Shown: positions 15,019 to 60,900 of the stretch, in pieces
How the letters are laid out: each line of letters opens with the position of its first letter
Position numbering within the stretch: the stretch's first letter is position 1
Assembly: GCF_018350175.1 (NCBI RefSeq)
Contig: NC_058368.1
Location: forward strand, 86,368,001 to 86,432,000
Direction of reading: 5' to 3'
DNA from: Felis catus
Lineage: Eukaryota
DNA length: 64,000 nt
Program-made: the position numbers and the translations under genes
The notes under the pieces: model-generated
Databases searched by the model: none
What the model was told of the DNA's origin: nothing
Seen by the model: the letters and a program-made list of their open reading frames with translations, nothing else

Positions 15019-15954
15019 TTATACAGAGCAGCAGATCCTCTGAATCACTCTTCTCAGGGCTCCCATCACCTCCTTGTTTCTCAAGCTGTAAATGATGGGG
15101 TTGAGCATTGGGGTCAGGATCGTGTAGAAGACGGCCAGAATTTTGTCCTCTGTTGGAGTTCTCAGTGATCTTGGGCGTAGGTAAGTGTAAGCAAAGGGTG
15201 CATAGTAGAAAGTTACCACAGTGAGGTGTGTGCTACAGGTGGAATAGGCCTTCTTCCTCCCTTCTGTTGAGTGCATGCGGCAGATGGTGAGGAGAACTCG
15301 GCCATAGGAACATGCAATGCCAAAGAAAGGTAACACAAGGAAGAGTGTGGTGCTCACAAACACCGTGTATTCATAGACCCAGGTGTCCATGCAGGCCAGT
15401 GTCAACATGGCCGGGAGATCACAGAAGAAATGATTGATGGTTCTGGATCGACAATAAGGGATATGGAGGGCATATACATTGTGGGCACAGGAGTTGATCG
15501 AGCTCATTATCCAAGATCCTGTAATCATCAACACAAGTACTCTTTTTCTCATATGAATGACATAGTGAAGAGGAAAGCAAATGGCCACATAACGATCATA
15601 AGCCATACAGGCCAACAGTAATCCTTCTGCACCAGCTAATGTAATGAAGAAGAAACTCTGAACTCCACACCCAATGAAAGAAATCGACTTATTTCCAAAG
15701 AGATAATTGGACGCCATCTTGGGGACAATGGTGGAGATGTAGTTCAGGTCCATGAGGGAGAGCTGACTAAGTAGAAAATACATGGGTGTGTGGAGATGAG
15801 TGTCCAGGAGGATGACGATGATCATGGACATGTTGCCAAAAAGAGCCATTAAGAAAATGAGAACAATGAAAATGAAGGAAAACAGGCCAATTTCTGATGG
15901 TGGGAATAATCCCAATAAGAAAAAATCAGTAGATGTTTGGTTATTATTTTCCAT
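15019..15954 (-). CDS. Olfactory receptor, family 2 subfamily L (OR2L2/L3/L5/L8-like), intact, 311 aa
   Basis: Single-exon ORF with the OR motifs NQTS glycosylation site, GN (TM1), LHTPMYFLLSQLS, MAYDRYVAICFPLHY, HFFCD, KAYSTCSTHL and PMLNPIIYSLRN. The N-terminus MENNNQTSTDF.LLGLFP is OR2L-type. The exact orthologue cannot be resolved by eye. Confidence 0.95.
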   Translation of the reverse strand: MENNNQTSTDFFLLGLFPPSEIGLFSFIFIVLIFLMALFGNMSMIIVILLDTHLHTPMYFLLSQLSLMDLNYISTIVPKMASNYLFGNKSISFIGCGVQSFFFITLAGAEGLLLACMAYDRYVAICFPLHYVIHMRKRVLVLMITGSWIMSSINSCAHNVYALHIPYCRSRTINHFFCDLPAMLTLACMDTWVYEYTVFVSTTLFLVLPFFGIACSYGRVLLTICRMHSTEGRKKAYSTCSTHLTVVTFYYAPFAYTYLRPRSLRTPTEDKILAVFYTILTPMLNPIIYSLRNKEVMGALRRVIQRICCSV

Positions 15955-15975
15955 GGGACATTAGTTTAGCTTTCC

Positions 15976-35734: not shown

Positions 35735-36151
35735 ATTTTTAAAATATTATTTATTTTAATTCAAGTTAGTTAATGTACAATGTAGTATTGGTTTCAGTAG
35801 CAGAACCCAGTGATTCATCCCTTTCATATATACCACCCAGTGTTCATCCCAACAAGTGTTCTCCTTAATACCCAGCACCCGTTTAACACACACCCCACCC
35901 ACCTTCCTTCCAGCAACCATCAGTTTATTTCTGTATTAGAGAATGTCATATGGTTTGCCTCCCTGTCTGTTTTTTCTTTTTCCTTCCCTTCACCTATATT
36001 CATCTGTTCTGTTTCTTAAATTCCACATGAGTGAAACCATATGATATATGTCATTATCTAACTGATTTATTTTGCTGAGAATAATACACTCCTATTCCAT
36101 CTATGTTGTTGCAAATGGTAACATTCCATTCTTTTTGATTGCTGGGTAATA

Positions 36152-36191
<40 letters not shown>

Positions 36192-39100
36192 ATGTGTGTG
36201 TGTGTGTGTGTACCACATCTTCATCTATCTAGTTGATGGACATTTGGGCTCTTTTTAAAATTTGGCTATTCGTGATAGTTCTGTTTTAAACATTGGGATA
36301 CATGTGCCCCTTTGAATCACAATTTTTATATCCTATGGAAAAATACCTAGTAGTGCAACTCCTGGGTTGTAGGGTAGTTTTATTTTTAATTTTTTGAGAA
36401 AACTCGTACTGTTTTCCAGAGTACTTTTATCAGTTGGCATTCGCACCAGCAGGGCAAAAATGTTCCTCTTTATCCACCCTTGCCATCATATGTTTATTGA
36501 GTTGTTAATTTAAGAAATTTTGACAGATGTGAGGTGGTACATCATTAAGGTTTTGATTTGTATTTTTCTGATGATGACTTATGTTGAGCATATTTTCATG
36601 TGTCTGTTAGCCATCTCAATGTCTTCTTTGGAAAAGTGTTTATTTGTGTCTTTTGCCCATTTCTTCTCAGGATTATTTGTTCTTTGGATGTTGATACGTT
36701 CTTTATAGATTTTGGATACTACACCTTTATCTGATATGCCATTTGCTAGATGGCCTTTTAGTTTTGTTGATTGTTTCATTCATTATGCAGAAGCTTTTTA
36801 TCTTGGTCAGGCCCAAGTAGTTCATTTCTGCTTTTGTTTCCCGCACCTTCAGAGACATGTCTAGAAATAAGTTGCTCAAAGAGGTTATTGCCTGTTTTCT
36901 CCTTACAATTTTGATGGTTTCCTGTCTCATATTTAGGTCTTTAATACATCTTGAATTTATTTTTATGTATGGTGTAAGAAAGCGATCCAGTTTCAATCTT
37001 CTACATGTTGCTGTCCAGTTCTCCTAGCACCATTTGCTAAAGAGTCTGTCTCTTTTCCATTGGATAGTCTTTCCTGCTTTGTCAAAGAGTAGTTGGCCAT
37101 ACATTTGTGGATCAATTTCTGGGTTCTCTATTCTGTTACACTGATCTATATGTCTGTTGTTGTGCCAGTACCACATGGTATTGTTGATTACAGATTTGCA
37201 ATACAGGTTGAAAACTGGAATTGTAATGACTCCAGCTCTGGTCGTCTTTTTCAGTGTTACATTGCATATTCAGTGTCTTTTCTGGTTCTATACAAAGTTT
37301 ATAATTCTTTGTTCCAGCTCTGTGAAGAATGCTCATATTATTTTGATAGGGATTGCACTGAATGTGTAGATTGTATTGGGTTGTATTGACGATTTAATAA
37401 TATTTGTTCTACCAATGCATTAGCATGGAATGTTTTTCCATTGCTTTGTTTCTTCTGAAAATTCTCTCATAAGCTTTCTGCGGTTTTCAGGGTACAGATC
37501 ATTACCTCCTTGCTTAGGTTTATTCCTTGGTATTTTATGATTTTTGGTACAATTCTAAATGGGATAAATTCTAAGTGGGATTAAATGATTTCTCTTTCTG
37601 CTGCTTCATTATTAGTGTACAGACATGCAATCAATTTGTGTACATTGATATTATATTCTGCAACTTTGCTGCATTCACATATCAGTTCTAGTTGTTTTTT
37701 TGGTGGAGTCTTTTGGGTTTCCCATGTAGAATATCATGTCGTCTGTTAAGAGTGAAAGTTTGACTTCTTCTTTGCCAATTTGTATGCCTTTCATCTCTTT
37801 TTGTTGTCTGATTTTTGAGGCTAGGACTTCCAGTACTATATTGAACAACAGCGGTAAGTGTGGACACCCTTGTCCTGTTCCTGGTCTTAGGAAGAAATCT
37901 CTCAGCTTTTACCCATTGAAGATATTATTAGCTGTGGGTCATTCATATAAAGCTTTTATGAAGTTAAGGTATGTTCATTCTTCCCTACTTTCTTGAGGTA
38001 TTTTATCAAGAAAGAACGTTGATGTCAAATATTTTTTCTTCATCTATTAACAGTATCATATGGTTCTTATCCTTTGTTTTATCAATGTTGTGTATCATGA
38101 TGATTGATTTGAAAAGATGGAATCAGCCCTGCAGCCCAGAAATGAATCCCACTTTAAAATTGGTGAATAATTCTTTTAAGGTACTGTTAAATTTGATTTG
38201 CTAGGATCGTGTTGAGAATTTTTGCATCCATGTTCATCAGGGATATTGGCCTGTAATTCTTATTTTTAGTGGGGGTTTTGGTTTTGGAATCAAAGTAATA
38301 CTGGCTTCCCAGAATGAGTTTGGAAGTTTTCCTTCCATTTCTCTTTTTTGGAACTGTTTGAGAAGAATAGGTATTAATTCTGCCTTAAAAGTCTAGTAGA
38401 ATTCCCCTGGGAGTCCATCTGGCCAAGGACTCTTATTTGTTGGGAGATTTTTGAATAACTGATTCAAGTTTTTTGTTGGTTATGGGTCTGTTCAAATTTT
38501 CTGTTTCTTCCCATTTGAGTTTTGATAGTGTGTGTCTAGGAATTTGTCCATTTCTTCCAGATTGTCCTGTTTGTTGGCACATAATTTTACTTAATATTCT
38601 TTTATAATTGTTTTTATTTTTGTGATGTTGTTTGTGATCTCTCCTCTTTCATTCATGATTTTATCTATTTGGGTCCTCTGTGTTCTCTTTTTGGTAAGTC
38701 TGGCTAGGGATTTATCAATTTTGTTTCTTCTTCAAAAAAACTTTTAGTTTCATTGATCTGTTCCGCCATTTTTTTGTTTGTTTGTTTCTATATTGTTTAA
38801 TTCTGCTCTAATCTTTATTTTTTCACATTTTCTGCAGGCTGTGGGTATCATATGCTGTTACCTTTTTCACTCCTCTAGTTGTAAGGTGAGGTTGTGATTT
38901 GGGGATTTTTCTTGCTTTTTAGATAGGGTTGAATTGCAGTGTACTTCCCCTTAGGACTGCCTTTGCTGTATCCCAAAGAGTTTGGACTCTCATGTTTGTG
39001 TTTTCATTTACTTCTGTGTATTTTTTTTATCTCTTCTTTAATCTCCTGATTAATCCATGGGGTGCCTTGGTGGCTCAGTTTCTTGGGCATCCGATTTCAG

Positions 39101-47929: not shown

Positions 47930-48868
47930 TTAATGGAGAAAGTTACTTTTGAGCATATTTTTCATTGCCTCAAGGACATCTTTATTCCTAAAGCTGTAGA
48001 TTATAGGGTTGAATGTAGGTGTGAGGATGGTATAGAATATTGCCAAAGACTTGTCCTGGCCTGGAGTGTGGTTTGATTTGGGTCTCATGTATGTGAAAAT
48101 AAATGGCCCATAATACATTGTGACCACCATCATGTGGAAGGAACAGGTAGAAAATGACTTTTTCCGTGCTTCTGATGATTTCATTTGAAATACAGTAATG
48201 AGAATTTGGACATAAGAAGCAATGATTAGGGAGAAAGGGACAAGCAGAAAAATTAAGCCACTTACATAAATTCTTCGTTCATACAGTGTTGTGTCCACAC
48301 AGGACAACTTCAACATGGCAGGGACTTCACAGAAAAAGTGATCAATAGCTCTTGAGGCACAGAAGGGAAAGTGGAGTGCATAAGCTGTGTGGACTATGGA
48401 GTTGACAGTCCCAATAAGCCAGGACCCTCTAGCCATGACAATGCAGACATAGTCATTCATAAGAATGGGATAGTGCAATGGATGACAGATGGCTACATAG
48501 CGATCATAAGACATTGCTGCCAGGAGAAGGCACTCGCCACCCAGGAGAGTGAGGGATAGAAATACCTGGAAGCCACAACCTACAAATGAAATAGTTCTGC
48601 TGCCTGACAGAAAGTCAGTGACCATTTTGGGAACAATGTTGGAAATATGCAAGATGTCCATAAAAGAGAGATGGCTCAGCAGGAAATACATCGGAGTGTG
48701 GAGTCTTGAGTCCCTGAGGATAAGGAGGATTATGACTGTGTTTTCTGTTACAGTCATAATAAAAATGATGAATATAAAGGAAAAGAAAACTAGACTTGAT
48801 TGAGAAGAAGAGAAGAGTCCCAAAAGAATAAAATCACTGGTGAAAGTGTGATTTTCATGTCCCATCAT
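47930..48868 (-). CDS. OR2AJ1: Olfactory receptor OR2AJ1-like, intact, 311-312 aa (start at 48868 or 48865, not 48940)
   Basis: MGHENHTFTSDFILLGLFSSS, TEN in place of GN, LHTPMYFLLSHLS, MSYDRYVAICHPLHY, KSFSTCSFH and PTFNPIIYSFRNKDV..MKNMLKSNFLH closely match human OR2AJ1 as I recall it. The first 24 codons of the track ORF span a splice acceptor. Confidence 0.88.
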   Translation of the reverse strand: MMGHENHTFTSDFILLGLFSSSQSSLVFFSFIFIIFIMTVTENTVIILLILRDSRLHTPMYFLLSHLSFMDILHISNIVPKMVTDFLSGSRTISFVGCGFQVFLSLTLLGGECLLLAAMSYDRYVAICHPLHYPILMNDYVCIVMARGSWLIGTVNSIVHTAYALHFPFCASRAIDHFFCEVPAMLKLSCVDTTLYERRIYVSGLIFLLVPFSLIIASYVQILITVFQMKSSEARKKSFSTCSFHMMVVTMYYGPFIFTYMRPKSNHTPGQDKSLAIFYTILTPTFNPIIYSFRNKDVLEAMKNMLKSNFLH

Positions 48869-48885
48869 GAACGTCTCTTTTTTTC

Positions 48886-48902
48886 CTAAAGTAGAAAATA
48901 AA
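48886..48902 (-). promoter_or_regulatory. Probable splice acceptor of the OR2AJ1 coding exon
   Basis: Minus strand reads tttattttctactttAG|gaaaaaaagagacgttcATGATG, the same layout as the OR2L gene. Confidence 0.65.
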
Positions 48903-49196
48903 ATAGAGCTAAAATAGAGTAGTATAAATATTAAACTCATTTACATTTAGATGCACAATAAAATGAGAGTTAGTGATGCATATTTTGCAATTAAAGTTAA
49001 TGGAATGTCAACCAGTTTTTGAAGTGGGCTTGTTTCACAACATGGTCATTTATTTGTTTGAATCAACTTATGATATTGAGTACATTGAGTGAGCTATTTA
49101 CTCCATGTAGTCTCATAGTCTCAATTCCATATTCTTTATTTTGGTTCAATCTTTGTCAAGTGTCATCTTTTCCAGGAGACCTAACTGTAAACACTG

Positions 49197-52175: not shown

Positions 52176-53269
52176 AATCATTTCTTTGTTCATCTTATCC
52201 TTTTCCTATTTTGTTTTAATTCTAAAGTTAAACATACAGTGTAGTCTTGGATTCAGGAATTGAACCCAGTGATTCATCTCTTACATATAACACCCTGTGC
52301 TCATCCCAAAAAGTGACCTTAAAGCTTGTCACTCATTTAACCCACCCCCACCACATCTCCATCAACTCTCAGTTTGTTTTCTATATTTAAGAATCTCTTA
52401 TGGTTTGCTTCCCTCTGTTTTTATTTTTCCTTCCCTTCCCCTATGTTCATCTGTTAAATTTCTCAATATCCACATATGAGTGAAATCATATTTGTCTTTC
52501 TCTGACTGGCTTATTTTGCTTAACATAATACACTCTAGTTTCATACATATTGTTGAAGATGGCAAAATTTCAATCTTTTTTTATCACCAAGTAGCATTAT
52601 ATTGTATATTGTGGAGTTATTTCTAGAGAGTGTATCGTAAGCCCTGGGAAAGTGAATATGAAATAAAGGCTATGTGCAGTTTGCTGCTGCTGCTTTTTCA
52701 TTTGCAGAGGCAGCCCTGCATGTCTGCTCAGTCTAAGTGCCTGAGAACTGTTTCTTCAGTAAGAGGTTACAACTGTCGCCGAAACAGGGACCAGCAAAAT
52801 CGACTGTGTAGCTCATCTCTCAAGCCCCAAAAAGGGAAAGGACCACTGCTCATCCAGGTAGGAACTACCAGCACTCAATAACCATGACAAGATGAGAAAA
52901 ATATCCCTAATCTTTTCTGTTTCACTCAGGCATGCAGACCCCTCATCTTCTTGTTTCTTTTACATTTGTTTTCATGTTCGCTTGTCATTGGGGATTTCAC
53001 TATCTAAACAGGAAGATATACATAAGGAGCAACTCTGTATGCTTTTGTTCTAAGGAAGTAAAATCCCAAAGATTAAACCAATTGCTTTCCATAATGTATC
53101 AGCAATGCCCATGGTCCCCTGTGGTGGTCCATTGAAATGGACGATTGGAAGTACATAGGGAACTGCTTAAAAAATGGTCTTGGCCCATTAAAGATCTCTC
53201 ATTTACACACTTGGAACTTATGCTGCATTGTCATTTCTGCTTTACAAGAAAAACCTGATAAAAAATAGT

Positions 53270-53500
53270 TGGCAGGACTCTCCCATGTAATTTAACCCAC
53301 TAGAGTAAATTTGGATTGCAAAATTTAGAAAAGGACTGATCTTCTGTAAAACTGCATGTCCTTAATACAATCTACCAGTTTTATTTCTTCTGCAAGAAAC
53401 AGGATAAATGGACTGAGGTACCCTATGTCCAGGCTTTCATGGCCCTATTCCAGGATCCAGAACTGAGGGCCTCTTGCAGAATGTGTTTGGCCACCAACTA
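53270..53500 (+). pseudogene. gag: Class I (HERV-W/ERV9/HERV-H-type) gag matrix remnant
   Basis: From 53373: YQFYFFCKKQDKWTEVPYVQAFMALFQDPELRASC, matching the class I motif FC...GKWSEVPYVQAF; upstream LIFCKTACP*Y. Confidence 0.75.
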
Positions 53501-54480
53501 GGCTAATAAACTCTCTCCTGATATATTGGATGATTGTCTTAACAAGCCTCCTCCTAATAAACCCAGGTTGCTGGAGAAAACACAGGCTATCCCTAATGAA
53601 GGGGACGCTGACACTCTGTCACTGTTCCTCTTTCCTAATAGACTCAGGTTACTCTAGCTGCATGTGGGGGCTTCTCCCTCATTCATTTCCTAAGTTAATG
53701 ACTATGATAATTGGAGCAATTGTCTATGGTTAGTCTACCTAGGGAAGGAGACTTTAAGGAATATTCACAAGGAGCTGCTGAAATGCCTTTTGTTTCATGG
53801 AAATTCCCTGTCTTCTTTGACTCGACATGGACTGCCCATTTCCAGTTGTGGTGGGGAAAAAAATCTGTCTCTATTCATAACTGATAGGGTTTAGAACTGG
53901 GAGACCTCTTTCTGTCCTCTGAGCTTTAATCCATCTCCAGCCTCCTTGGAAGTACCTCACCTCTTCTGCCCTTCTTTCCCTCCTCCTACTTCTACACAAC
54001 TTTGGATGCAAACTACGTGACAGACTTCCACACTTTCAGGGCACCTCCAGCACCATCGGCTTCTCCTCCTTCCCTCACTGTCCAAGGATCAAAGAACACC
54101 CGTTTTAGACTTTGATTCTCCACTTCAGATTTCCTCACTGGTACCCCAGGTAAAAATTGAGCATGGTAAACAAATTGCTTCACTTTTAAATGGATCCAGA
54201 TAAAAGATATTTGGTATTTTAATAAAATTAAGTTTATTGTTTTAATTAAGATAGACTTGTCTTTAAAATTGTCTACATTAAATTTACAACTTTTTCTACC
54301 TAGGTTTACTAAAGATCAAATAAGCTCATGTAATCTCTGTTGCAATTTGTTAACAAAAAGACAATTTAAAATAATGTCTACTTCTGTCTCAAAAGTTTTC
54401 ATGGGTAACTGTTAAGATAGCTTTCAAGGTCTTTGATAACCTAAAACTTTAAAGTTTTTTCTGGATGATAAAAGTTTTGT

Positions 54481-54690
54481 CTGGGTGGCTCAGTAGGTTA
54501 AGCATCCGACTTCAGCTCAGGTCATGATCTCATGGTTCATGGGTTCGAGCCCCATGTCGGGCTCTGTGCTGACAGCTTGGAGCCTGGAGCCTGCTTCGGA
54601 TTCTGTGTCTCCCTCTCTCTCTGTTCCTCCTCTGCTCTCTCTCTCTCTCTCTCTAAAAAATAAATAAAGATTTAAAAAATTAAAAACAAC
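54481..54690 (+). mobile_element. Can-SINE inside the provirus
   Basis: Typical body lacking the first few bases. Confidence 0.92.
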
Positions 54691-55043
54691 AGAAAAGCAA
54701 AGGATATTTAAATCTGTTAAAAAATTATTTGTGCTTAATTGATTCATAAATTTTCCATCTAAAAAATTCTGATATAACAGTTCACAATTGGTTACTACTT
54801 AATTTTTACTGGAAACTAAGGTTTCTGAGAGTTAAAATTCTGCTAAATATAATTAAAACTGATGAAAATAAGAAAAATAACTCTGTATGTAAAAAATTAA
54901 GATATAGATTTATATATTTTTTTATATTTATATAAAATATATAATATGTATAATATAAAATATATAATATATGTTTATATGTATTTATATATATTTTATA
55001 TATATTTATATATATATTTAATTTTTTACATACAGTTATGTAA

Positions 55044-55087
<44 letters not shown>

Positions 55088-55731
55088 CATTTTTGTTAAA
55101 GGTAAAAGAAAATAATTTTGTCCAAAATGAGACTGGTTATTAAAAATAATGGCTTGGGAAAAAATCTAAATGCAAAGGAAAGTTGTAAATGTTTCGTGAA
55201 TGGAAATCTTTGGGAAAAAATGTGTGGTTAAGACAGACTAAAGTTAAAATAAATGGATTTTAAAAATACACTAACACAAGGTTAAAATTCTACTTTTCTC
55301 TCTATTCAAAAAGCAGTTTTCTTGGATTGTGGATCTGCTCTTGAAAGAAATGTAAGCAAAGGTTTTTTCTCTTTGTCTGACAAAAGAAAAAAAAAAGCTT
55401 TATGTTTTGTTTTTATCAGGTCTTTAATTACTTAGTAAAAACTTCTCAATGTTAAAGGAACTAGGTTTTGCTAACAACTATATAAACCTACATATTTGCC
55501 TTTAAAATCTCTTATCGCTACCTTGATTAAATAAATAAGATTTATAACGATCTGTAATCCTATTGACGTTACACTTTATAACTTTCTAAGATTTTAACAA
55601 ACTTCCTAGGATTTAAAATTGTAAATAAAGTCTTTGTAACCAATTGAGTCTTTTTATTTAATAAATAGTCTTGGAAAGCCCAAATAATTGGAAACTTTAG
55701 GGTGTATTGCTTGGGTAAATACTATTAACTG

Positions 55732-55775
<44 letters not shown>

Positions 55776-55960
55776 CACAATTCCTAAAGCTTTAATATGT
55801 TTTAATATATAGTCATCACTTGATATTCTGATTATCAAAATGTTATATGTCACACACTAAATTTCCTTCTCAATTACATCATAATAAACTCTCATCAAAA
55901 TAAATTCTTATATCAAAATTTTAACCATGTCCATTTTTAAGTCTTTTGTCATTTATAGTG

Positions 55961-57900
55961 ATGGCAGTAACCCCTCCCAGCAGGATGTGGAATCCAAAGA
56001 AGAGGACGATTGATCACTCAGCCAACTGAATCATCTTCTGGGTAATGTTAGAAATTGAACCTCAAAGGTTAATGAGGTTTTAATCAACACAGGCACACCC
56101 GAGACCCCTAAAAATATGTTTCTACCCATCATCTCTTGCCTTGCTGCCAACTCAGCTAAGGTAATACTCCTGCTAACGTCTCTGCTTTATTTACCTGTTG
56201 CTTCTATTCACCCACCCTTTACTTTTACCTACTGGGCTCATCTTCTTAGCTCTCCTATTTGTATTTAGTCTCTTGGAAAGATCCTAAAATTCCTGTCTCA
56301 TCTAATGACTCCTCCATTACCAGAAGACACTGGGTTCCCATTAATGCTAATGATTTGCCTAACTATCCATCACATAGAGTCTCAATAAATTGGACTTTTT
56401 CTCACTTGGGCATCTCTCTATGTTTCTGTTATAATCCTAACACTTGTAATACTAACCAAAGCCTCTGTGTCCCTCTTCACAAACAATGGTATGCTTAAGA
56501 CACCAAAAAATGTATTCCAGGTAAGTACTATCCAGTATCTTATTTTGTTCTCAAAATAGAAATATGAGGAAACCTAAATGAGGGAAACTGAGTACCCAAA
56601 ACTTCAATGCCAGTATATACCAAACCCTGGCTGGAGATGGGGCCCTATGATGGCTTCTCATGGGACCTCTGCCATTCTTGTACTTTAACCAAATATCCGT
56701 AGTAAACAATAAAATCCTTGAAATTTGGGGACCTCAAGGAAAGTAATGGATGGAGAAGTAATAGAACCTAGGAAGGACATATCTGGAATCAGTCACTTCC
56801 TTTCCTATGACACTTTTACCCCCATATGGAATCCTGGACTTGTCATTCCAATACTTTGAGTCAAATATTCCACTAATGCTTATTCTTCTATTAAAACTTC
56901 CTTTTGGAGGATTGACCTGCCATTTATTCACAGAAAATTTATACATGATCCCACTACATTTATACATGACAAATATAATTGGTCCTATACCAATGAAATC
57001 AACAGTACTCTTATATGTACTACAAGGCCATATATTTTACTACTTGCATCTGCAGCTCCAAATTTTAATGAGAAACACACTATTTTAATAGGGAACAAAA
57101 CATGGGTGACCACTTTGTTTCTCTCCTACAAATATATCACATTTATATGTACCCTTTATTCACATCACCAAAGTCACAACTGTAGTCACTGGTTCAATTT
57201 AATCGGCCTTGGCAAGGGGGCGGTGCCCATTGCAACAACTTGTCTCTGAATTATAGGAAAGAAAGAGAACCAAAAGATTTCTAGGCATTGTGTTGGTGGC
57301 TATTTGGGCCATTACAGCATTTGCAGCAATAGCACGCTCGGCAGTCACCTATCCAACTCCTTACAGACCACACACCAAATAAACCAATATATGTAAAATA
57401 CTACACTAGATTTGGGGGAACAAGTGAGAATTGATCAACATATCTTTGCCCAACTTCAGGCATTAGAAGCTGCTCTTGTGTGTCTAAGAGAACATCAACA
57501 GGTATTGTGGACTTTATTACGACTTACGTGACACAGGTTTCACAACCTACTGTATCACCCCCACTTTACACAATGAGTCCTAGAATTAAATGCATAGACA
57601 TCTTAATCAGGCATTTGACTTGCCCTTAAATGTCTCCATTAACAACTTAAAAATCAGATTGCAAAAATAATTACAAGAACTTCAACCAAAAAAGGCAATA
57701 ATTAACACTCTCAGTATTTCTAACTGGATCAAACCAAAAAATTGGTTCTCTGGGTTCAATCTACAGTCCTGATTTAACAAATATAATATTGCTAATAATA
57801 TTGGGTTTTTGTTTGTTTTGTTTTGTTTTGTTTTGTTGTCAAAATGATGATGTCTCTTTGCTCCTCTAACAAGTCACCCAAGGTGTTCTTCACCATACCC
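55961..57900 (+). pseudogene. env: Betaretrovirus-like env remnant
   Basis: TPKNMFLPII signal region; FTYWAHLLSSP / VSWKDPKIPVSSND (SU N-terminus); RTKR-FLGIVLVAIWAITAFAAIA furin site and fusion peptide at 57266; QVRIDQHIFAQLQALEAALVCL; YCITPTLHNES. Multiple stops and frameshifts. Confidence 0.85.
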
Positions 57901-60900
57901 AGATACTCACCACTTCTGTGACAATTCCTGATTCTGTTAACTGAAAAAAAGAGGGGGGGAGGGGGAGATGTAGAGTTATTTTTATAGAGTGTATTGTAAG
58001 CCCTGGGAAAGTGAATGGGGTAATTTATGAAATATCAGCAATGTTCTGGTTTCAAGATTGTCTGATGTGCTAGCACTATGAGATCCAGAGCCTCATGATC
58101 TTCCAGGAGCCAGTTGGGGAACAGACCCACTGTAATTGTCTAGCTGTCCTTGAGACTGCATCTTTCCTGCATGCTTTCACATAAACACCGTTTGTGTGTT
58201 TGGTCTATGTCTGGAGGCTCTTCGTGTTTTCCTACAATACTTTGGCATTCTTTGATGTTTATACCTGTTGAACATGAAATATAAACTATGTGCAGTTCAC
58301 TGCTGCTGCTGTCTTTGCTGGCAGAGGCACCCTGCACGTCCGCTCAGTCTTAGTGTCTGAGAACTTTTTCTTCAGTGTGTGGCTACAGTATATACACATA
58401 CCACATCTTCTTAATCCATTCATCAGTTGATAGACATTTGGGCTTTATGCACAATTTGGCTATTGTTGGGAGCACTGCTATAAACAATGGGTTGCACGTG
58501 CCTGTCGAATCAGCATTTTTGTATCCTGTGAATAATTCCCAGTAGTGCAATTTCTGGGTCATAGGGTAGTTCTATTTTTAATTTTTAGAGGGATCTCCAC
58601 ACTGTTTCCCAGAATAGCTGCACAAGTTTGCATTCCCACCAAAAGTGCGATAGAGTTCCCCTTTCTCCACATCCTTACCAAAACCTGTTTCTTATGTTGT
58701 TAATTTTAGCCCTTCTGGTTGGTGTGAAGTGATATCTCATTGTGGTTTTGATTTGTATTTCCCTGATGATGAGTGATGTTGAGCATCTTTTCATGTGTCT
58801 GTTAGCCATCTGGATGTCTTCTTTGGAAAACTGTCTACTATGTCCTTCGCCCATTCTTCACTGGATTGTTTGTTTTTGGATGTTGAGTTTGGTAAGTTCT
58901 TTGTAGATTTTGGATGCTAACCCCTTATTGGATAAGTAGTTTGCAAATATCTTCTTCAATTCTCTTAGTTACCTTTTAGTTTCCTTGATTGTTTCCTTTG
59001 TTGTGGAGAAGTTTTTATCTTGATGAGGTCCCAACAGTTCATTTTTGCTTTTATTTCCCTTGCTTCCAGAGATATATCAAGTAAGAAGTTGCTGTGGGTG
59101 AGGTCAAAGAGGTAGCTGCTTGTTTTCTTCTCTAGGATTTTGATGGTTTTCTGTCTTATATTTAGGTCTTTCCTCCATTTTAAGTTTATTTTTGTGTATG
59201 ATGTAAGAAAGTGGTCCATTTTCATTTTTCTGCATGTTGCTGTCCAGTTCTCCCAGCACCATTTGCTGAAGAGAGTTTCTTTTTCCCATTGGATACTCAT
59301 TCCTGCTTTGTGAAAGATTAGTTGGACATATATTTTTGGTTTCATTTCTGAATTCTCTATTCTATTCCATTGACCTATTGTCTGCTTTTGTGCCATTACC
59401 ATACTGTCTTGATGATTGCAGCTTCATAATACAGGTTACAGTTCATGACTGTGATGCCTCCAGCTTTGTTTGGTTTTCTTTTTCAATTTTACTTTGTCAA
59501 TTCAGAGTCTTTTCTGCTTCCATAAACATTTTTGAATTGTTTCCTCTTGCTCTGTGAAGAATGCTGGTGTTATTTTGATAGGAGTTGCATTGAATAGTAG
59601 GTTGCTTTGGGGAGTATCAAGATTTTAGCAATATTTGTTCTTCCAGTCCATGATCATGGAATGTTTTTCCATTCTTTATGTCTTCTTCAATTTGTTTTGT
59701 AAGCTTTCTATAGTTTTCATTGTATACATTTTTCACCTCTTTGGTTAAGTTTATTCCTACATATTTTATAGTTTTTGGTGCAATTGTAAATGGGATAAGT
59801 TCCTTGATTTCCCTTTCTGCTGTTTCATGTGGTGTATAGAAATGCAACTGATTTCTACACATTGATTTTTATATCCTGCAATTTTGCTGAACACATGTAT
59901 CAGCGCTAGCTGGTGGAATCTTTTGGGTTTTCCACTTAGAGTATCATGTCCTCTGTGAAGAGTGGAAGTTTGACTTCTTCTTTGCCAATTTGGCTGCCTT
60001 TTATTTCTTTTTGTTGTCTGTTTTTTGAGACTAGGACTTCCAACACTATATTTAACAACAGTGGTGACAGTGGACATCACAGTCATGTTCCTTATTTCAG
60101 GGGAAAGCTCTCAGCTTTTCCCTACAGAGGATGATATTAGCTGTGGGCCTTTCATATATGTCTTTTATGAGGTAAGGTATCTTCCTTCTATCCCTACTTT
60201 CTTCAAGGTTTTTATCAAGGAAGGATGCTGTATTTTATCAAATGTTTTTTCTGCATGTGTTAACAGGATTGTATGGTCCTTATCCTTTCTTCTATTAATG
60301 TGGTGTATCACACTGATTGATTTGCAAATATGGAACCAGCCTGCAGCCCAGGAATGAATCCCACTTTATCATGATAAATAATTCTTTTAATGTACTGTTG
60401 AATTCAATTTGCTAGTATATTGAGAGTTTTTGCGTCCACGTTAATATGGATATTGGCCTGTAATTCTTCTTTCTTGTGAGGTCTTTCTGTGGTTTGGAAT
60501 CAAGGTAATGCTGGCTTGATAGAATGAGTTTGGAAGCTTTCCTTCCATTTGTATTTTTTTTGGAAATGTTTCAGAAGATTAGGTATTACCTCTGCTTTAA
60601 ATGTCTGATAGAATTCCCCTGGGAAGTCATCTATCCCAGGACTCTTGTTTGTTGGGAGATTTTTGATAACTGATTCAATCTCTTCATTGCTTATGCATCC
60701 TTGTCAAATTTTCTATTTCTGCTTGTTTGAGTTTTGGTAGTGTTCGTCTAGGAATTTGTCCACTTCTTCCAGAATGCCCAGTTTGTTGGCATATATTTTT
60801 TTCATTCAATTCTTTTATAATTGTTTGCATTTCTGTGGTGTTGGTTGTGATTTCTCCTCTTTCATTTGTGATTTTATCTAGTTGTGTCCTCTCTCTTTTT

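Follow-up and report, generated by a model that had tools for sequence, protein, structure and literature searches.

recKoRV, a recombinant of KoRV and PhER, has been described as a non-autonomous element in which the 5′ LTR, leader and truncated gag come from one virus, as do the 3′ part of env and the 3′ LTR, and in which the non-coding interior comes from an abundant older ERV; it is bounded by TSDs and occupies multiple loci (passages of PMC5696478 and PMC6112702). The provirus described here is built in the same way, and contig joints suggest that mosaics occur at other loci as well. However, the frame of recKoRV is a recent and polymorphic gammaretrovirus, and recKoRV1 includes the donor's 3′ LTR, whereas the frame here is betaretroviral (beta) with LTRs that are 14% diverged, and it retains all of the env region without a donor LTR. 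Harlequin and other mosaic HERVs likewise place a MER57/MER4-type middle in an ERV frame, and they spread after recombining (passages of PMC4724089 and PMC10536682). Harlequin is a class I by class I product, whereas the provirus here crosses classes.

Most known exchanges that link class I with class II gave a gamma env to a beta genome (passages of PMC3758190), as did 390 of the 391 bat recombinants in the passages of PMC12402889. The type D viruses (M-PMV, SMRV; PMC3758190) are replication-competent env swaps with beta gag-pol and gamma env. Our provirus resembles them as a class I/class II recombination with a beta genome, but its beta env was kept and its gag-pol was lost. The remaining bat recombinant, M.lyra-ERV100, paired a beta env with class I pol and thus also holds class I sequence and beta env in one element; however, it is a single incomplete locus with a HERV-W/H-like pol, whereas here no pol was found and a beta matrix (MA) remnant is present. 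Three felid class II clades are defined by RT in the passages of PMC4373062, and our provirus, being without RT, cannot be placed among them. We found no published description of such an element in a search that had subscription papers and repeat databases outside its range, and none in the passages of the felid (PMC4373062) and dog (PMC3093408) surveys, PMC5753468, PMC12584738 or bioRxiv 2024.10.28.620668.

Here, we analyzed a window of 64,000 nucleotides from Felis catus (assembly GCF_018350175.1, contig NC_058368.1). A sequence-only reading had described the provirus in this window as a non-autonomous class I/class II chimera with a gamma-type gag remnant, a beta-type env and no pol, mobilized in trans by a class II helper.

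Results

The provirus spans positions 52610-58387 on the + strand (Table 1). Both of its LTRs have TG...CA ends, and they agree at 138 of 161 aligned bases (14% diverged; K2P distance of 0.16 over 161 sites), which corresponds to a rough age of 32-81 million years if the rate per site and year is taken as 2.5 to 1.0e-9. The perfect 6-bp TSD claimed in the sequence-only reading was confirmed along with the two LTRs, and a random 6-mer match has a probability of ~6e-4 at the flank composition. Both flanks match adjacent segments of other dispersed-repeat copies (e.g. 35876-36136 and 36211-36591). They are neighboring parts of one dispersed repeat, which we take to be the 3′ end of L1, and the provirus therefore interrupts a single repeat copy. 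The PBS is of the Lys type, as the reading had it, and presumably that of Lys3 tRNA. By eye, 15 of its 18 bases are those of the PBS of the class II HML6 chain in Table S1 of PMC4724089. Lys priming is a weak class marker, with K also used by 19 of the 532 HERV-H chains in the passages of that paper. Apart from the polypurine tract before the 3′ LTR, neither strand of the element has a PPT-like tract.

Table 1. Features of the provirus and its target site (window positions).
Feature	Position	Strand	Remarks
TSD, left copy (GTATAT)	52604-52609	.	same 6 bp at both ends
5′ LTR	52610-52771	+	257 nt shorter than 3′ LTR
PBS, Lys-type	52774-52791	+	match to HML6 chain PBS
Leader of low-copy (beta) family	52792-52987	+	relative depth ~2-9; between PBS and beta MA
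Betaretroviral MA/p10 remnant	~52988-53262	+	Pfam Gag_p10; 5′ start by eye
Class I MA remnant, HERV-W/HERV30-like motif	53271-53510	+	tblastn to P0001
Sequence continuous with class I MA in high-copy family	53511-53839	+	contig pieces 53386-53867; relative depth ~30-170
Low-copy proline-rich stretch	53840-54087	+	relative depth ~1-12; contig joints to 53881, 53954
AT-rich non-coding interior, high-copy family	54088-55958	+	GC 15-37%; depth from 54088-54450
SINE within interior	54481-54700	+	24 blastn matches elsewhere in window, 66-83% identity
Beta-type env	55961-57940	+	many stops and frameshifts; 5′ limit by eye
Polypurine tract	57943-57968	+	sole PPT-like tract
3′ LTR	57969-58387	+	419 nt
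TSD, right copy (GTATAT)	58388-58393	.	same 6 bp at both ends

The gap of 257 nt in the 5′ LTR (at 52657-52658) is absent from related LTRs, whose reads continue like the 3′ LTR, and loose read ends behind 52657 in X1, X17 and X24 represent related copies with the missing LTR part. The gap probably arose at this locus. At the other end, the contig P0003, which matches 57805-57996, continues from its env end through the PPT into a similar LTR start, and is therefore a close 3′-end relative in another sample. The LTR pattern was found in no viral contig and no metagenome contig searched; one bacterial MAG gave 20-21 matching bases only, which we ascribed to chance. An Rfam search returned no matches, and the scans for related loci confirmed none.

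A 6-bp TSD marks ERV2 and a 4-bp TSD marks ERV1 (passages of PMC6523648). Like HML/HERV-K-like ERV2, the element combines a 6-bp TSD and TG...CA LTRs with a Lys-type PBS, a Gag_p10 MA and a beta-type (GP41-type) TM. None of the ERV2 enzymes (class II RT, protease, dUTPase, integrase) was found by Pfam in the frames and interior pieces; the enzyme region is replaced, and the filing as ERV2 therefore rests on the frame, the MA and env. Of the marks of a class I provirus, the element has the MA, whereas a 4-bp TSD, a gamma-type env and LTRs, PBS or PPT of class I were not found. The LTR pair is the sole repeat within it, and no internal PBS-like site, PPT-like site or TG...CA-bounded duplication was detected, in agreement with the earlier statement that no internal LTR points to a nested insertion. 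Short repeats at the junctions were tried as a TSD or microhomology and rejected, as 365 and 1095 of ~5000 random pairs scored equally well.

The sequence-only reading had treated the gag remnant as simply gamma-type. This had to be revised, since the gag of the element starts with a beta MA and the class I MA follows it. The beta MA remnant is spread across three frames. With an X at one break, it matched Pfam Gag_p10 at E=9.2e-5 and 22.8 bits, just below the cut-off of 23.9, and a single-frame piece of 25 aa matched at E=0.0046 (two of six pieces matched). Among its 11 PDB matches, the top one was the Gag of 8c9m (E=7e-4), which we take to be HERV-K, followed by the MA of M-PMV in six sequences (E=0.047-0.17). 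The rest, comprising three designed barrels and a Fic protein, were discarded as chance, and the single-frame pieces gave chance matches only. Longer relatives of the beta MA were found in none of the five candidates.

The class I MA remnant has an internal deletion and is without its first residues. Its tblastn match to P0001, one of three candidates found, had E=5.7e-24, and P0001 in turn matched Gag_MA (PF01140) at E=2.2e-5, under the cut-off, and MLV p15 (1mn8) at E=0.0036. Two window pieces of this MA gave no Pfam match on their own, and the class I call thus runs through P0001. The KWTEVPYVQAF peptide that had been noticed before lies at 53406-53438, and the motif also occurs in HERV-W and HERV30 Gag in the supplement of PMC4724089. 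The class I MA begins ~10 nt 3′ of the beta MA end, which therefore leaves no space for a class I LTR or leader. Judged from its sequence, the element carries a beta MA directly before a class I MA.

The proline-rich stretch downstream had no retroviral Pfam match and may be beta gag after the MA or diverged class I. The AT-rich non-coding interior was as described before, with a GC content of 15-27% over 54600-55999, and it additionally contains a SINE, presumably of the CAN-SINE type, which is taken as a later insertion. The interior presumably resembles MER4-group class I internals, a likeness that would parallel the middle of the mosaic HERVs. From this likeness, the high depth at its 5′ end and its position, we infer a class I origin of 54088-55958. 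Six short interior words had no match in a version of the PMC4724089 consensus text in which long sequences are cut.

The claim that pol is missing also held. For pol, protease and capsid, none of 12 whole frames matched Pfam and none of 21 shorter interior pieces matched a retroviral Pfam family, in scans that are insensitive to badly broken genes (the whole-frame scan missed env as well). Although the scan is weak, pro-pol does not fit an interior this short and AT-rich. With no pol, protease or capsid found, the description of the element as non-autonomous stands. The interior ends at 55931-55960 in a pyrimidine-rich run and AG, similar to a 3′ splice site, directly before env, and this sequence might have supplied the env splice acceptor. 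A search of the ESM Atlas gave no usable match.

All of the env peptides in the earlier reading were present (YWAH at 56230, RTKR-FLG at ~57266-57286 and YCITP at 57548). Of ten relatives of the TM frame, seven belonged to Pfam GP41 and two to no family; the tenth, P0006, is a repetitive unrelated protein and was dropped. Against the PDB, the TM profile found three TM entries (E=6.6e-25 to 6.7e-19), one labelled HERV-K and the other two of the same sequence, and the TM is nearest to HERV-K among solved structures. No gamma TM was among the seven PDB matches of the profile at E≤1, and the env TM showed neither ISD nor CX6CC. Beta-type and gamma-type TM do not find each other in searches (passages of PMC3758190); therefore, these matches sort the class of env, and env and the class I MA are indeed in different classes, as had been proposed. 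Collinear matches to P0009 extend from SU through TM. P0009, a GP41-like turtle protein (Pelusios, UniRef), has the greatest length among the env relatives; as of 2013, beta-type TM had been found in mammals only (passages of PMC3758190). One env frame compared with the PDB and the protein collection gave nothing relevant.

In 20 of the 24 runs listed (12 studies, one organism), 93-95% of the words in 52600-54450 were present. Reads or contigs of four whole-genome runs were aligned to this interval at 80% likeness, and depth was divided by that of the exact-match contig or, for raw reads, by an assumed 0.79x. Summed depth covers only copies at least 80% alike and does not give a true copy number. 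The relative depth was 14-44 over the LTR, 1-9 over the leader and beta MA, 24-168 over 53282-53839, 1-12 (mean ~6) over 53840-54087, 15-27 over 54088-54273 and ~90-380 over 54274-54450. The mean was 3-6 over the leader and beta MA compared with 58-71 over 53282-53839 in all four runs. Depth thus rises at the junction of the two MAs, by ~six- to ten-fold there, which indicates that the insert belongs to a much larger family.

Among the 15 of 90 joints listed, two distinct contigs join the leader (at 52933 and 52936) to 53619, a position that overlapping contig pieces assign to the family of the class I MA. Both contigs are present in both contig runs, one also with a raw read, and their depths were 32.8 and 29.5 compared with 31.6 for the exact-match contig, and 22.1 and 24.8 compared with 24.9. 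They read as two further loci rather than alleles. Two more contigs among the joints listed join the beta MA end (53264) to 53881 and the beta MA end to 53954, the intervening letters being unread in both; the latter appears, by identical depth, to continue to 54145. The junction at 53262-53271 was crossed by 31 letters on both sides in only the exact-match contig among the contigs listed. These joints suggest that the low-copy 5′ part and the interior are also combined at other loci, in mosaics shorter than this copy.

Elsewhere in the window, a second beta gag fragment of ~900 nt in all lies at 29601-28698 on the − strand (Gag_p10, E=2.8e-9). It is bounded by 130-nt direct repeats (29601-29471 and 28829-28698, 79% identity), has no DNA similarity to the provirus, and may represent a gag-only mini-element whose LTRs are very short. 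Two open frames of olfactory receptors on the − strand, at 15019-15960 and 47930-48940 (Pfam 7tm_4, E of ~1e-46 and 2e-45), make the window look like part of an olfactory receptor cluster.

Discussion

The element is a beta provirus in which the capsid-to-integrase middle is replaced by class I-derived sequence, presumably including the AT-rich part, and it is probably a member of a small family. The idea of a class I/class II mosaic is upheld, with a class I MA within a class II frame (6-bp TSD, Lys-type PBS and beta env). Building on the anatomy, the class of both MAs and of env, the depth step and the joints in other contigs, we consider it probable that the provirus is a non-autonomous recombinant that arose by template switching and was integrated by a class II helper. 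In this model, an ERV2 (betaretrovirus-like) genome would have been co-packaged with RNA from an abundant endogenous family of class I, and template switches in reverse transcription would have put class I sequence in place of the beta capsid-to-integrase region, starting at the class I MA and continuing into the AT-rich non-coding interior. The recombinant would have kept the beta cis-signals (LTRs, Lys PBS, leader, gag start and PPT) and lost all enzymes, and a class II helper would have reverse-transcribed and integrated it in trans, causing the 6-bp TSD. Retrotransposition would have yielded a handful of copies, some with further deletions, and the provirus would then have decayed over tens of millions of years.

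This model is supported by the beta MA and beta env that flank the class I MA, and by the presence of one LTR pair, one PBS and one PPT with none internal. Passages of PMC4724089 characterize a replicated recombinant by the same LTR at both ends and no third, unrelated LTR, which is what we found. The criteria of that paper also ask for like mosaics at several loci, all in sense and each with its own flanks; here, the observation is the read joints in other contigs, which suggest that the mosaic was mobilized, as the sequence-only reading had assumed. However, the shared joint at 53619 is not the junction of this copy and the junctions show no significant microhomology, which counts against the template-switch model, as does the Gag_p10 score just below the cut-off. 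Segmental duplication, rather than replication, may have produced the siblings.

A single-locus history would need no mobile mosaic: a class I provirus inserted in a beta provirus, and both of its LTRs were later lost, along with the beta gag-pro-pol, by deletions or gene conversion. Mosaics are documented to arise by secondary integration (passages of PMC4724089), deletions also occur elsewhere in this copy (257 nt of the 5′ LTR and one inside the class I MA), and its exact junction occurs in no other contig among those listed. Nevertheless, we regard this history as unlikely, because it calls for two deletions, each of an entire LTR, insert and frame have the same orientation, no internal LTR, PBS, PPT or TG...CA-bounded TSD was found, and the class I block is joined to the low-copy leader in other contigs. 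Somewhat less likely again is a mosaic of more than two switches. The basic family would then consist of the beta 5′ end, the AT-rich interior and beta env, with 53840-54087 as the beta gag downstream of MA and with the class I MA block (53265-53880) inserted separately. The stretch 53840-54087 is as low in depth (mean ~6) as the beta leader and MA and continues in the beta MA frame, with stops, and one contig joins 53264 to 53881. However, this stretch is without a family match, and at 80% likeness diverged class I sequence would look low in depth too. Moreover, the 6-nt repeat found at both ends of the block is not significant, and two other contigs connect the leader to a portion of the block (from 53619 onward). 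Such a mosaic is a variant of the template-switch model and compatible with it in mechanism.

The sequence-only reading had also presented the layout as the mirror image of type D viruses, which our data do not bear out. A class I element that acquired beta env and beta LTRs would explain why class I MA and beta env share one provirus, but the beta MA, which occupies the gag position immediately behind the PBS and leader, already contradicts such an origin. Moreover, the class I MA is without its own start and leader, and class I pro-pol was not found by Pfam in the 12 frames and 21 pieces. We therefore consider this origin very improbable: the frame is beta at both ends, so that this is no case of a class I virus acquiring a beta env. 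Since nothing here was a working class I virus, the rule against beta env use by class I viruses stands.

For annotation, such elements call for caution, because they escape surveys based on RT and would be broken up into ERVK and ERV1 pieces by repeat masking. We tentatively raise a further idea, which we think has a minority chance of being correct: carnivores may have an undescribed family of non-autonomous elements that are beta-framed and carry unrelated matrix genes as a tandem pair, and in which a class I (MER4-type) AT-rich cassette, once captured by a betaretrovirus, hitchhikes across classes, is amplified by class II machinery and recombines repeatedly. If true, such a family would point to a selected cis-function of the AT-rich cassette in export, packaging or stability. 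If the template-switch recombinant was copied as such, beta particles would have taken up class I RNA in the carnivore germ line, and the route of viral decay known from recKoRV would extend to cross-class pairs.
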